Shown in pieces: positions 35,444-64,000 of a DNA stretch of 64,000 bases. Under the pieces are notes generated by a model. That model did no database searches. It saw only the letters and a list, made by a program, of their open reading frames with translations, and was not told the DNA's origin. Every line of letters begins with the position of its first letter. Position 1 is the first letter of the stretch. The DNA comes from Giardia intestinalis (lineage: Eukaryota), in NCBI GenBank assembly GCA_000002435.2, contig CM018792.1; one strand, 5' to 3'. The position numbers and the translations under genes were made by a program.

Positions 35444-37186
35444 TCACGCCTTCCCCCTACATATGAACCACCAGCAGAGGAAGCCGACGAGGCCCCCCAC
35501 GACGACGACCACGGCGACGGAGATCCCCGCGATGGCGCCTGTGCTGAGGCCGCTCCTGTTGGTGCCAGAGGACACACACTTACCATTGTCTAGACTGAAG
35601 CCACTGTTGCACTCCCCACATATATTATCCATCACACAGCTCTTACAACCACCCACAGAGCACAGGACACACCCACTGCCGTCCCTGTTGGGCTTCCTAT
35701 CACTGTCACAGGAGGTACACACAGCAGCAGCCATACCACCCTCAGTCAGAGCTGTTGGGGCTGTGCACTGTGAGCAGCCATCCACCCCCACGTATGCCTT
35801 AGCAGTATCACCAGTGCCTGTCAGTGTGCCTAGGGGGTTGCTACAAGCCAACACGGACTGATCAGTGTTGGATGCCCCTGGGACCAGGAAGTACTTATTA
35901 CTTGCTGCCTCTGTGCATATCCCATTACTACTTGATGCCTTGCACATGAAGCTACCTGGTTCTTGACCAACCTTATAACAGCCTCCCATATATAAGAAGT
36001 ACCCTTGAGCACACTGTGTACATGTATGACTGTCACAGGTATTAGTTCCTTTCTTATTATTATCACTAGTACATATACCATCAATAGGGAACTTATTAGC
36101 CTCTCCACAGTAAGAACAATAGTGCTTTGTGGTGCCCTGATCATCTATTATCATGGCATCACAGGCGCCAGAGGTACCACCGCAAGCCGTTGTATCCTCG
36201 CAGGTCTTTGTACATGTGACCCCAGTTGAAGGGGTACCGTTTTGCTTGTAGTTGGGCTTACAGGAGTTGCAGGTCAACGAGCCAGAGAAGGTGCACGTTG
36301 CACATCCATCGATGCCCCCCTGTGCATTATCACAAGCAACGCACTCACCAGTAGGACCACTGCCTTTCATGAAGAATCCAGGCTTGCATTTAGTACACTG
36401 ATTATTGCCAGTTTGAGTGCAGGTGGCACAATTATCACCACAGGCTGCGCATGTAACCGTACCACTACCACTACTGTAGTATCCAGCTAAGCACTCTGAG
36501 CAGGTTGGATTGGCACTTGCTGTCTTCGTGCAAGCCTTACAGCCAGCAATGCCTTTGTTCTTTGGGTCTGATCCGCTGGTATCGCTGCACAAGACACACG
36601 CAGCATCACCATCTGCCTTGAAGTGATCAGCATCCTCGCAGCCAGAGCTTATATCGACGCATGTCGTGGTGCCATCGATGGCCGTCTTCACCTTCTTATT
36701 GTTATTACAGGCGGTGCACTGGGGCTTACTGACAGTCGCATTGTACTTACAGGTAGTACATGCTTGATCTATCGTACTGCATTCCTTGCACGTTCCAGAC
36801 TCTGGGTCTGGATAAACGGTGCTCGTGCATTGATCACTAGTTACGCAAGTCTTATCACCCTTCAAGTACTTCCCCTCTGGACACGATGTGCACTGGGCCG
36901 CCGATGTCTCACAGGTCAGACAAGTACCATCACACTTGCTACATGCCTGAAAGTCCTTGTAGTACCCTGCTTGACAGGCAGTACACGTGGCTGCCCCCTT
37001 ATTACTATCTGACTTGGTGCATGTGGCGCAGTTAGCCACCCCCGTATACCCATCTGCTCCCGTGGCATCATGACAGAGTATGCACTCCCTTCCCTTCTCT
37101 GGTGCTGTAGCAGGGTTCTGGAATACGTACTTGTTATCTGTCTTACAAGCAGTGCACAGTCCATTACTGGCTGCTGTGCATATCAC
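35444..37186 (-). CDS. VSP-like unit A (body module a + tail module 1); ends ...WWFICRGKA; no ATG and no signal peptide
   Basis: Frame opens at a TAG in the spacer. The ORF-track M at 37184-37186 is GTG (VICTAASNGLCTACK...). CxxC-rich throughout, with one GGCY (FLYMGGCYKVGQEPGSFMC). AGTAAAC at 35430-35436 lies 7 nt after the stop. Confidence 0.65.
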   Translation of the reverse strand: MICTAASNGLCTACKTDNKYVFQNPATAPEKGRECILCHDATGADGYTGVANCATCTKSDSNKGAATCTACQAGYYKDFQACSKCDGTCLTCETSAAQCTSCPEGKYLKGDKTCVTSDQCTSTVYPDPESGTCKECSTIDQACTTCKYNATVSKPQCTACNNNKKVKTAIDGTTTCVDISSGCEDADHFKADGDAACVLCSDTSGSDPKNKGIAGCKACTKTASANPTCSECLAGYYSSGSGTVTCAACGDNCATCTQTGNNQCTKCKPGFFMKGSGPTGECVACDNAQGGIDGCATCTFSGSLTCNSCKPNYKQNGTPSTGVTCTKTCEDTTACGGTSGACDAMIIDDQGTTKHYCSYCGEANKFPIDGICTSDNNKKGTNTCDSHTCTQCAQGYFLYMGGCYKVGQEPGSFMCKASSSNGICTEAASNKYFLVPGASNTDQSVLACSNPLGTLTGTGDTAKAYVGVDGCSQCTAPTALTEGGMAAAVCTSCDSDRKPNRDGSGCVLCSVGGCKSCVMDNICGECNSGFSLDNGKCVSSGTNRSGLSTGAIAGISVAVVVVVGGLVGFLCWWFICRGKA

Positions 37187-37208
37187 CCACTATCACACAC
37201 TGCACAGC

Positions 37209-37215
37209 ATTCACT
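37209..37215 (-). promoter_or_regulatory. AGTGAAT putative polyadenylation signal (Giardia AGTRAAY) 7 nt after the CRGKA stop of unit B
   Basis: Minus strand reads ...AGGCGTGA CTTAGGT AGTGAAT GC. The identical arrangement follows every CRGKA stop in the array. Unit A has AGTAAAC at 35430-35436. Confidence 0.55.
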
Positions 37216-37222
37216 ACCTAAG

Positions 37223-61648: not shown

Positions 61649-61715
61649 ACTCCACTATCACACATTATCACACTATCACCTTCTATCACACATTGTACAG
61701 CATTCACTACCTAAG

Positions 61716-63548
61716 TCACGCCTTCCCCCTGCACACGAACCACCAGCAGAGGAAGCCCACGAGGCCCCCCACGACAGCGATGACAGCCACGGAGATCCCT
61801 GCTATGGCACCAGTACTGAGGCCGCTTCTGTTGCCCCCGCTGGGCTTGGTGGACACGCACGCCTCACCCTCCAGCCTGTAGTCGTCCCCACACTGGCCGC
61901 ACTTGTTCTCCTCGCTGCACCTGACGCACCCGTCGATACTGCAGGCGATGCACTGGGAGCCGTCCAGGCTGGGCCTCTGGTCTTTACTGGTACAGCCCTC
62001 GCACTTATCGCCTGCTCCACAGTGCGAACATCCACTAACGGTACATGCGAAGCACCCGCTCCCAGCCAGGTTGGGCTTGTTGTTGCCGCTACACGCTGTG
62101 CACGTGGCGGGGGCCATGCCAGGAGCCTCTAGCTGTGTCGGGGCTGTACATGCTGAGCAGCCATCTACTCCCACATATGCCTTAGCAGTATCACCAGTGC
62201 CTGTCAGTGTGCCTAGGGGGTTACTACAAGCCAACACAGACTGATCAGTGTTGGATGCACCAGGCACTACGAAGTACCTATTGTTGGCTGCTTCTGTGCA
62301 GATCCCAGTATTACCTGCTGTCTTGCACATGAAGCTACCAGGAGCCTTCTGAGTGCTATAACAGCCACCCATATATAAGAAATATCCTGTAGTACAAGAC
62401 TCACAGACATGGTTGTTACAAGTATTACTTTGAGCCTCACTAGCACAGAGACCATCTATAGGATACTTACTGCTATCCCCACAGTATGAACAGTAGTGCT
62501 TTGTGGTGCCCTGATCATCTATTATCATGGCATCGCAAGCTCCAGAGGTACCACCACAAGCTGTAGGATCCTCACAAGTCTTGGTACATGTGACAGAGCC
62601 AGGACTGCTATCGCTCTGCTTGCGATAGTTGGGCTTACAATCGGTGCACTTGAAAGTATTGCCATCATTCGAGCAGACACTGCATCCATCGATGCCACCT
62701 TTGGCTGTGTCACTACAAGGGACGCACTCCTTTGTTACACCCTCGGTTTTTAGGAAGTATCCCGGCATGCATTCAGTACATTTGTTAATGTCAGTTTCAG
62801 CAGTACACTTTGCACAGGTATCAGCGCATTTCTTCGTACAAGTATTAGTCTCAAGAAAACGACCCGATAGGCATTCAGAGCACGTTGTTTTGGTACCTGC
62901 CTCCTTGGTGCATTTGTTGCAATCGGCAACACCCTTGTTTGTATTCTCATTATTTCCACTAATATCACCACATAGATAACAGGCTGAGTCATCGTCTGCC
63001 TTGAAGTGATTCTCATCCACACATCCAGAGCTCATATCAACACAGGTTGTCGTTCCATCCAGCTCTGTCTTTACCTTCTTATTACCGCAGTCACTGCATA
63101 CCGGCTTCTGTAGCTTTGCATCGTACGTGCAAGCAGTGCACTCTGGTATGCCCCCCTGCTCTGCTGCACCGTTACAGGCTGTGCACTTGCCGGTGCTTGG
63201 GTCGGGGTACTGGTTATTATCGCAGGTTTTTGAGCACGACCCGTCTGACTTCAGATAGAAGCCCGCTTTACAAGATGAACACTGATTCTGACCGGCCCCG
63301 GTACATGTGGCACAGTTGTCATTACATTTGGTACATGCCTGAGAGTCCATGTAGTATCCATCTCTGCAGGTACTACACGTGGCAGGTCCTGTACTACTGT
63401 CTGACTTGGTACACTGTGCGCAGTTAGCCACCCCCGTATATCCATCTGCTCCATTGATATCGGAGCACAGTATGCACTCACTACCCTTCTCTGGTGTTGC
63501 AGCAGGGTTCTTGAACAGGCCGTTAGCTGTCTTACACTCAGTGCACAC
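61716..63548 (-). CDS. VSP-like unit O (b-like N-terminus, body from b and e modules, tail 2 variant)
   Basis: MCTECKTANG... (GTG). Tail ...[61 protein letters not shown]. Confidence 0.65.
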   Translation of the reverse strand: MCTECKTANGLFKNPAATPEKGSECILCSDINGADGYTGVANCAQCTKSDSSTGPATCSTCRDGYYMDSQACTKCNDNCATCTGAGQNQCSSCKAGFYLKSDGSCSKTCDNNQYPDPSTGKCTACNGAAEQGGIPECTACTYDAKLQKPVCSDCGNKKVKTELDGTTTCVDMSSGCVDENHFKADDDSACYLCGDISGNNENTNKGVADCNKCTKEAGTKTTCSECLSGRFLETNTCTKKCADTCAKCTAETDINKCTECMPGYFLKTEGVTKECVPCSDTAKGGIDGCSVCSNDGNTFKCTDCKPNYRKQSDSSPGSVTCTKTCEDPTACGGTSGACDAMIIDDQGTTKHYCSYCGDSSKYPIDGLCASEAQSNTCNNHVCESCTTGYFLYMGGCYSTQKAPGSFMCKTAGNTGICTEAANNRYFVVPGASNTDQSVLACSNPLGTLTGTGDTAKAYVGVDGCSACTAPTQLEAPGMAPATCTACSGNNKPNLAGSGCFACTVSGCSHCGAGDKCEGCTSKDQRPSLDGSQCIACSIDGCVRCSEENKCGQCGDDYRLEGEACVSTKPSGGNRSGLSTGAIAGISVAVIAVVGGLVGFLCWWFVCRGKA

Positions 63549-63670
63549 TCCTCCCTCAGCCTTTGTACATATCTCACTCCACTATCATACTATCACACAC
63601 TATCACCCATTATCACCCTCTATCACACATTATCACCCATTATCATCACTCATAGCATTCACTACCTAAG

Positions 63671-64000
63671 TCACGCCTTCCCTCTACACACGAACCACCA
63701 GCAGAGGAAGCCCACGAGGCCCCCCACGACAGCGACCACAGCCACGGAGATCCCCGCGATGGCCCCCGCGGAGAGCCCGCTCCTGTTGGCGCCAGAGGAC
63801 ACACACTTACCATTGTCTAGACTGAAGCCACTGTTGCACTCCCCACACACACCGTCCACCACACAGCTCTTGCAGTTGGTGTCAGAGCATACTACACACC
63901 CACTGCCATCCTTGTTGGGCTTTTTATCACTGTCACAGGAGGTGCACACAGCGGGGGTCATACCACCATCAGACAGACCTGCTGGGGCTGTACATGCTGA
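63671..64000 (-). CDS. VSP-like unit P, 3' part only (tail 1 type); the remainder lies beyond the window end
   Basis: ...[50 protein letters not shown]...CRGKA*. The frame stays open to position 64000. Confidence 0.6.
   Translation of the reverse strand, partial: SACTAPAGLSDGGMTPAVCTSCDSDKKPNKDGSGCVVCSDTNCKSCVVDGVCGECNSGFSLDNGKCVSSGANRSGLSAGAIAGISVAVVAVVGGLVGFLCWWFVCRGKA

Follow-up and report, generated by a model that had tools for sequence, protein, structure and literature searches.

The 64,000-nt stretch of DNA analysed here (the window) belongs to contig CM018792.1, a 2.76-Mb chromosome in the 2020 long-read assembly of Giardia intestinalis WB clone C6 (GCA_000002435.2). The minus strand of its part from 35444 to 64000 is occupied by units which resemble genes for variant-specific surface proteins (VSPs) and which had been described, from the letters of the sequence, as a head-to-tail array. 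This array is real. We found 15 complete units (U1 to U15), 1779-1974 nt in length and arranged head to tail on the one strand, and the last 330 nt of a sixteenth (U16; Table 1). All 16 unit ends encode ...CWWF(V/I/L)CRGKA, followed by the stop codon TGA and by the extended VSP polyadenylation signal (extended PAS), which at the 16 ends reads TGACT(T/C)AGGTAGT(G/A)AA(T/C). The extended PAS was defined as the motif ACTTAGRTAGTRAAY directly after the stop codon (Rodriguez-Walker 2022 preprint). U1 is the last unit of the array; it has a variant PAS (TGACTCAGGTAGTAAAC), after which unique DNA begins. The units match the Pfam family PF03302 (VSP) with E-values of 1e-31 to 1e-40 and scores of 110-140 bits, the cut-off being 31.4, and therefore chance resemblance is not an issue. 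Their cysteine content is 11.9-12.4%, and each contains 26-29 CXXC motifs.

Read in the standard code, the long frame of each unit starts right behind a stop codon and opens with a Cys-rich sequence, as had been noted before. The stop is followed by WSEICTKAEGG..., W(S)VICTAAS... or WSMICTAAKDG.... In 12 of the 15 complete units this frame is uninterrupted over 575-653 codons and terminates in CRGKA. U9, U10 and U12 carry an ATG at codon 1-3, which results in open reading frames (ORFs) of 585-653 codons ending in the transmembrane (TM) segment and CRGKA, while in the other nine intact units the first in-frame ATG is located at codon 78-350. Thus, the description of the units as mostly devoid of an ATG start is correct for 12 of the 15, the three units named above being the exceptions. 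Similarly, the VSP anchor that was called invariant is indeed present at 16/16 ends, but in U11, U13 and U14 it is out of frame with the main ORF.

The distance from a stop codon to the point at which the next frame opens is 33, 53, 61 or 89 nt (36-92 nt including the stop), with the exception of only 12 nt before U12. The preliminary description had given 36-122 bp; no spacer of 122 bp was seen. The spacers are made up of the PAS and 1-6 copies of a degenerate 10-nt repeat with the sequence GKGTGATARN on the coding strand, and Tandem Repeats Finder independently recovered this repeat in every long spacer. The spacers of 33-89 nt have stops in all three frames. In the 89-nt type, common to U2, U4-U8, U11, U13 and U15, every frame is closed by 5-7 stop codons, because a period of 10 nt cannot be divided by three and TGA and TAG or TAA occur in each copy. 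The stop-rich repeat might mark the boundaries of cassettes.

Table 1. Units of the VSP-like array and other features of the window. Positions are those of the window; families A-D are explained in the text.
Feature	Position	Strand	T of stop codon TGA	Description
U1	35444-37222	-	35446	family C; ORF 35447-37189, 581 codons, no early ATG; upstream spacer 37190-37222
U2	37223-39168	-	37225	family A; ORF 37226-39079, 618 codons; 89-nt spacer 39080-39168 with 10-nt repeat
U3	39169-41049	-	39171	family C; 33-nt spacer
U4	41050-42962	-	41052	family B; ORF of 607 codons; 89-nt spacer
U5	42963-44908	-	42965	family A; 100% identical to U7
U6	44909-46725	-	44911	family B; second member of duplicated two-unit block
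U7	46726-48671	-	46728	family A
U8	48672-50488	-	48674	family B
U9	50489-52392	-	50491	family C; opens with WSMICTAAKDG behind a stop, ATG at codon 3, no signal peptide; 53-nt spacer
U10	52393-54209	-	52395	singleton body
U11	54210-56024	-	54212	family B; frame broken
U12	56025-57998	-	56027	family D; ATG-initiated ORF of 653 codons, no signal peptide
U13	57999-59867	-	58001	family D; frameshifted
U14	59868-61715	-	59870	family D; frameshifted; 61-nt spacer
U15	61716-63670	-	61718	family A, 95% identical to U2; 89-nt spacer
U16	63671-64000	-	63673	3' end only, 109 codons + stop
Long-type spacer (example)	39080-39168	-		extended PAS (CTTAGGTAGTGAAT), then 5.7 copies of GKGTGATARN
ORFs opposite family-B units	42658-43482, 46421-47245, 50184-51008, 55720-56544	+		274 codons, TTG start
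Cys-rich membrane-protein genes	6654-8822, 29534-31606, 32302-34755	-		two HCMPs and an unnamed 722-aa protein
tRNA gene	26922-26994	-		Rfam RF00005, 66 bits
Ankyrin-repeat gene	25230-26915			

The alignment of the 15 complete units with a full-length VSP starts no earlier than residue ~106 (residue 91 for U12), and in the full-length VSPs of this clade the landmark SEICT is preceded by exactly 105 residues. In the units other than U12, the homology begins at TGG-AGT-GAG (W-S-E). Together with the lack of a counterpart for the first 103 VSP residues in the window (see below), this confirms that the units are 5'-truncated VSP cassettes starting just past the first GGCY module. U12, which reads MLYSDSDSAMWCGGDSDSMRLLFMGGCYNKDAHPGSEICT, is the only unit that retains LLFMGGCYNKDAHPG upstream of SEICT, encoded by ~47 extra nt; it corresponds to unit L of the preliminary description, for which an upstream FMGGCY had correctly been reported. 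From the codons L-F-M-G-G-C-Y onward, each base of the extra stretch can be aligned with a full-length VSP. The ORF of U12 begins inside the PAS, and the spacer repeat is there a 6-nt variant, which is read as SDSDS. From this we infer that the junction of U12, formed by fusion of a VSP 3' end in the vicinity of the CGDGYFLFMGGCY segment, is the older one, and that the majority type was derived from it by a short deletion. According to this scheme, a VSP 3' end would first have been joined to an internal point near this segment, the founding junction would have been amplified by unequal crossing-over, and the units other than U12 would carry a further deletion of ~47 nt and the stop-rich 10-nt repeat. 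The uniform truncation point would then be due to the amplification of one founding junction. The uniformity had previously been taken as a sign of something more than scattered pseudogenes. It holds for the 15 units, but its simplest cause is one amplified founding junction and not a function of this particular point.

Using a multiple alignment of the units, we distinguished the families A, B, C and D and one singleton (Table 1). Blocks of 100% identity of up to 1.5 kb change abruptly to 25-60% identity between units. For example, the first 1.5 kb of U3 are identical to U1 and its last 0.5 kb to U2, U12 and U13 match perfectly only in alignment columns 200-900, and U10 agrees with U9 in its first 200 nt, and with U1 and U6 in a block of 100 nt close to the 3' end. 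The block consisting of U5 and U6 (3,763 bp) is duplicated as U7 and U8 (42963-50488) with 99.7% identity. The 12 mismatches are located in two patches (44974-45007 and 46559-46654 of the first copy), and these look like micro-conversion from a U4-type unit. The mosaic pattern as a whole is the signature of repeated rounds of unequal crossing-over and of conversion of short tracts.

On the opposite strand of the family-B units, an ORF of 274 codons with a TTG start recurs (Table 1). This ORF is probably a by-product of the G-rich, stop-poor antisense sequence of VSPs.

In U11, an A5 run and an AA run (near 54462 and 54421) have each lost 1 nt, which breaks the frame. U13 (~58323) and U14 (~60193) are frameshifted and have one deletion in common, the deletions in U13 being located in C5 and CC runs. 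Thus, the frame-breaking changes in these three units are all losses of 1 nt from short homopolymer runs (A5 to A4, AA to A, C5 to C4, CC to C). Such losses are a typical type of consensus error in long-read assemblies, and U11, U13 and U14 may be intact in reality. In the non-identical tracts, the ratio of nonsynonymous to synonymous substitution (dN/dS, Nei-Gojobori) is 0.2-0.35 at a dS of 0.8-1.7. In a simulation, random substitution of 5% of the positions resulted in 3.9 stops per unit ORF and left only 2% of the ORFs open, and at the observed divergence of ~40% about 22 stops are expected; yet 12 of the 15 units are open and have kept the cysteine framework. Taken together, the dN/dS values and the open ORFs show that neutral decay in place was not the source of the diversity. 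The variable bodies must have diverged as parts of translated VSPs, under selection at the level of the protein, and they have been moved into the array or have kept exchanging with it.

It had been proposed to look for a full-length VSP gene with a body matching the modules of the array, and such a gene exists. KAE8304460.1 is a VSP of 689 residues with a signal peptide (MFQLIPLFVASALMAAC...), encoded on the same chromosome. Its accession directly follows that of the HCMP gene at 32302-34755, and it is the next annotated protein. At the protein level, residues 104-689 are covered without a gap by exact tiles of 11-360 residues from array units: 104-118 from U12, 119-166 from U15, 167-217 from U1/U3/U9, 218-577 again from U12 (360 residues), 578-611 from U14, 612-650 from U1 and 651-689 from several units. 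For residues 1-103, no counterpart was found in the window beyond a weak paralogous similarity of Cys modules and a 9-residue match (LFMGGCY) in U12. As a control, we used 137 other VSP-family proteins of at least 400 residues. Their median coverage by exact 15-residue words of the array was 3%, and the best other signal-peptide-bearing gene of WB reached 28%. A VSP encoded on chromosome 5 (P0005) has an exact tract of 83 residues in common with U4, its identity being 54% overall. U16 and KAE8304460.1 are identical at 97 of 109 residues. U16 is thus not the 3' end of KAE8304460.1, and therefore the array continues past the window; one further cassette or more would lie between the end of the window and this gene, which probably heads the array.

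Each unit contains the variable Cys-rich ectodomain, beginning immediately behind the first GGCY, as well as the TM-CRGKA tail, the stop codon and the extended PAS. Absent from each are a promoter or initiator, a signal peptide and the conserved N-terminal module of ~105 residues, and, apart from the early ATGs of U9, U10 and U12, also a start codon. That we deal with a linear array of pseudo-VSPs (psiVSPs or pVSPs) is nearly certain. Its best explanation, which we consider probable, is that untranslated cassettes exchange tracts with expressible VSPs. Among the three roles proposed in the preliminary description (a silent reservoir for recombination, a source of RNA and a set of genes expressed by an unconventional route), the reservoir has the most support, namely the mosaic units and the tiling of KAE8304460.1; based on such sequence comparisons, we regard the reservoir function as moderately supported. 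The cassettes would not be translated as surface proteins. Instead, gene conversion or unequal recombination would exchange tracts among the cassettes, between them and KAE8304460.1 and, from time to time, between them and VSPs of other chromosomes. The exchange could be primed by the conserved 5' block (SEICT..G.CT.C..NGLFKNP..ECILC) and by the conserved 110 bp at the 3' end, and its outcome would be a reshuffling of the variable ectodomain of expressible VSPs over evolutionary time. The array would not be the switch mechanism itself, for which the literature proposes epigenetic or RNA interference (RNAi)-like switching.

It is tempting to go one step further and to consider the array an active donor bank, KAE8304460.1 being recently assembled, and perhaps still reassembled, from short tracts of the downstream cassettes without signal peptides. 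This possibility is tentative and less likely than not. If true, recombinational antigen diversification would take place atop epigenetic or RNAi switching, comparable to the formation of mosaic VSGs or to pilE/pilS. Further, if conversion is ongoing, estimates of the antigen repertoire of Giardia and the design of VSP-based vaccines must allow for mosaic variants.

Several points weigh against a reservoir. Instead of being a donor, the array could take up tracts from functional genes and thus be a sink. To our knowledge, there is no experiment in Giardia in which recombination gave rise to a new expressed VSP. Where KAE8304460.1 lies with respect to the array, and in which orientation, was deduced from the order of accessions alone, and its tiles were compared at the level of protein only. 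In addition, VSP switching is epigenetic or post-transcriptional according to Adam 2010 (PMC2996952). Finally, some pVSPs of WB were reported to be transcribed and up-regulated in cysts (PMC8700996), so that it may be premature to call the present array silent.

Array-type units are not confined to this locus. Many database models from WB, P15 and other isolates start with MGGCY..., MLYSDSDS... or MICTAAS..., and these are units of the array type called from the first available ATG. Among Giardia contigs from gut metagenomes, one (L002) contains two consecutive units with identical PAS and 10-nt-repeat spacers, opening with VICTAASNG, and another (L003) contains a U12-type junction preceded by the repeat and then a remnant cassette of 70 residues. 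Since the two contigs carry the same spacer and junction, the structure is not an artefact of one assembly. The short cassette of L003 (1862-2147), which consists of only the last ~70 codons with CRGKA, follows straight after a normal unit and behind a fragment of a U12-type spacer, and is similar to 'vsp14', a remnant of 224 bp reported by Adam 2010. L001 (P0016) was rejected as an array, since it is a solitary VSP.

An assembly artefact is unlikely as a whole, considering that the units differ, that arrays of up to 10 units were known from the Sanger era and that the metagenome contigs have the same succession of unit, spacer and unit. Only the exact copy number could still be affected. The 2007 assembly contains XP_001703902.1 (P0007, 645 aa), whose residues 1-312 are identical to U12 while the remainder follows U13 (56025-59867). 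This chimera shows that the array had been collapsed in 2007 across the block common to both units. Another entry, XP_001704929.1, corresponds to the 3' part of U1.

Many partial proteins of the assemblage-B type from other G. duodenalis isolates (P0009, P0060, P0067, P0037 and others; L004 779-2659) begin ~63 residues before the SEICT landmark (VNDPAGVPIDSLCRPSSSPQ...), which suggests that the arrays of this other lineage may be truncated at a different, earlier point. Upstream of the unit in L004, which is assemblage-B-like, no recognisable CRGKA or spacer was found. A lineage-specific truncation point, as hinted at here, fits an amplified founder junction better than a functional need for one exact point. 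It also points to the truncation as a lineage accident, and thus to the possibility that the array is a dead-end by-product of unequal crossing-over around a truncated VSP copy. Such a by-product would have no role or would act as a sink only, and it would look intact since it is young and passively overwritten, through conversion, by functional VSPs. The uniform junction and the near-identical units (U5 equals U7; 99.7% in the two-unit block) indeed indicate recent amplification, three units have frameshifts, and 'remains of discarded vsp genes' was the alternative named by Adam 2010 (PMC2996952). However, KAE8304460.1 is tiled entirely by cassette sequence, so that an expressible gene belongs to the same exchange pool. 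Moreover, arrays without signal peptides are found again and again, not only in WB but also in other isolates and in G. muris, and 208 psiVSPs versus 133 VSPs would be a large investment for a very compact genome (PMC7000408). We therefore consider a by-product without a role unlikely, though it is the strongest competitor of the reservoir.

Are the cassettes themselves expressed? In line with what had been claimed, none of the units encodes a signal peptide. The maximum of the 10-residue Kyte-Doolittle mean at their N-terminus is 0.66-1.32, compared to 2.4-3.1 in the signal peptides of the neighbouring HCMPs and of full-length VSPs, and the window has no counterpart of VSP residues 1-103. The initiator (Inr/Kozak-like) motif [CT]AATGTT had no match on either strand between 35000 and 64000. 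A Giardia-type 3' splice/branch motif (CTRAC...ACAG) was found on neither strand of the array, and GTATGTA is confined there to the unit bodies. A signal-peptide exon joined by cis- or trans-splicing is thus unsupported. A signal peptide hidden in another frame was rejected in view of the spacers of 33-89 nt with 5-7 stops per frame. A polyprotein or read-through product was also rejected: only U1 and U2 share a frame, by chance, other neighbours do not, and multiple stops lie between the units.

The early-ATG units U9, U10 and U12 could nevertheless be translated, and their products could reach the membrane without a classical signal peptide. Their ORFs of 585-653 codons ending in TM-CRGKA would permit this, and according to Li 2013 (PMC3656445) the sequence upstream of 'motif 1' is dispensable for the membrane localisation of plasmid-expressed tagged VSPs. 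This result was disputed, partly because the constructs were pVSPs (Rodriguez-Walker 2022 preprint). Furthermore, there is no initiator motif, the three ATGs are preceded by just 12-53 nt of stop-rich or PAS sequence, and 12 of the 15 units do not have an early ATG. Unconventional expression is thus the least probable of the explanations considered here, and we regard it as highly improbable. The protein collection has no entry for the ATG-started ORFs of U9, U10 and U12, which is consistent with an annotation of the units as pseudogenes.

A separate observation concerns U10. Its C-terminal 390 codons (52396-53565, the 3' 1170 nt) are 100% identical to AAN52101.1 / Q8I8W3, 'variant-specific surface protein S6' (390 aa). 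If this entry derives from cDNA, U10 or an identical copy is transcribed.

The array could also serve as a source of RNA, in that read-through or antisense transcripts would feed the RNA-dependent RNA polymerase/Dicer/Argonaute pathway which silences all but one VSP. Every unit has kept the VSP-specific extended PAS, VSP transcription was reported to be bidirectional, and VSP-like non-coding repeats ('Gireps') were proposed as sources of small interfering RNAs (Chen 2009, PMC2817412). Some pVSPs of WB were also detected by RNA-seq, with a rise in cysts (PMC8700996). On the other hand, the array lacks the initiator motif, the psiVSPs of G. muris are essentially non-transcribed (PMC7641422), and the open ORFs and the dN/dS below 1 are left unexplained. 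We thus hold such a role to be very unlikely. With Rfam at the gathering threshold, no structured RNA was found in the window other than one tRNA outside the array.

On one side, the array is flanked by 35 kb of ordinary single-copy genes. Five of the flanking proteins match exactly consecutive GenBank entries (KAE8304445-KAE8304459) of WB C6. Three further genes for Cys-rich membrane proteins, with real signal peptides and on the strand of the array, lie upstream of the array 3' end (Table 1); the HCMPs among the neighbours belong to group 1 (KAE8304458) and group 4 (KAE8304459, the gene at 32302-34755). The tRNA gene is located just downstream of the ankyrin-repeat gene.

The class of array described here, the observation and the leading hypothesis are all already known, and the array is already annotated in the source genome. 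The novelty implied in the preliminary description is thus not given, since the array class and the reservoir hypothesis were in print for the same genome (PMC2996952; PMC7000408). More than half of the WB vsp genes are present in "linear arrays" with intergenic regions of 60 bp on average, whose downstream members have no Inr and often no ATG, and which were proposed to be unexpressed recombination cassettes (Adam 2010, PMC2996952). In the same work, the longest array had 10 units, longer ones were thought to be probable, and chromosome 4 was the densest in vsp genes. The paper on the assembly annotated 133 VSPs and 208 pseudoVSPs, the latter being located in arrays without start codons (Xu 2020, PMC7000408), and pVSPs in arrays were reported to lack the 5' portion and to keep the extended PAS (Rodriguez-Walker 2022 preprint). 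By definition, the first member of a VSP linear array is full-length with upstream expression signals, while the downstream members are unexpressed (Adam 2010, PMC2996952; Xu 2020, PMC7000408). The present array agrees with the WB arrays in organism and genome, in the head-to-tail arrangement with spacers of ~60 bp, in the lack of an Inr, a proper start and a signal peptide, and in the conserved CRGKA and extended PAS. With at least 16 units versus 10 in the longest array of the 2010 assembly, it is longer but not categorically different.

In the published descriptions of WB arrays, we did not find the stop-rich 10-nt spacer repeat or the complete tiling of a neighbouring VSP stated. What is new here is a concrete donor/acceptor locus, at which the whole variable region of one expressible VSP is a patchwork of sequences also present in the array, and quantitative support for the view that the cassettes are not decaying in place. 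The defined locus makes the long-standing reservoir hypothesis (Adam 2010) directly testable.

Arrays of psiVSPs were also described in G. muris (Xu 2020, PMC7641422). They consist of 5-23 VSP copies without signal peptides, are essentially non-transcribed and were proposed to be a silent reservoir, and there is phylogenetic evidence for segmental gene conversion with intact VSPs. Like the present array, they are tandem VSP copies lacking signal peptides. Unlike it, nearly all of them are located beside telomeres with their tails toward the chromosome end, and their tail is GCRGK, whereas here the flank consists of single-copy genes and the tail is CRGKA. In a 2025 population-genomic study, VSPs were enriched among the gene-conversion tracts in sub-assemblage AI. 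This enrichment fits a reservoir.

Promoterless, 5'-truncated tandem copies of the variable part only are also known from Neisseria pilS/pilE, Borrelia vls and the VSG arrays of Trypanosoma brucei. In these systems, conserved flanking blocks can prime conversion into an expressible copy, and the expressed-type gene is a mosaic of cassettes. They differ from the present case in that conversion is there the demonstrated switching mechanism, while switching in Giardia is reported to occur without DNA rearrangement, and the families are unrelated to VSPs. We therefore use these silent-cassette systems as a working analogy and do not claim membership. The likeness consists in an expressed-type gene that shares identical tracts with promoterless, truncated cassettes, as seen here for residues 104-689 of KAE8304460.1.

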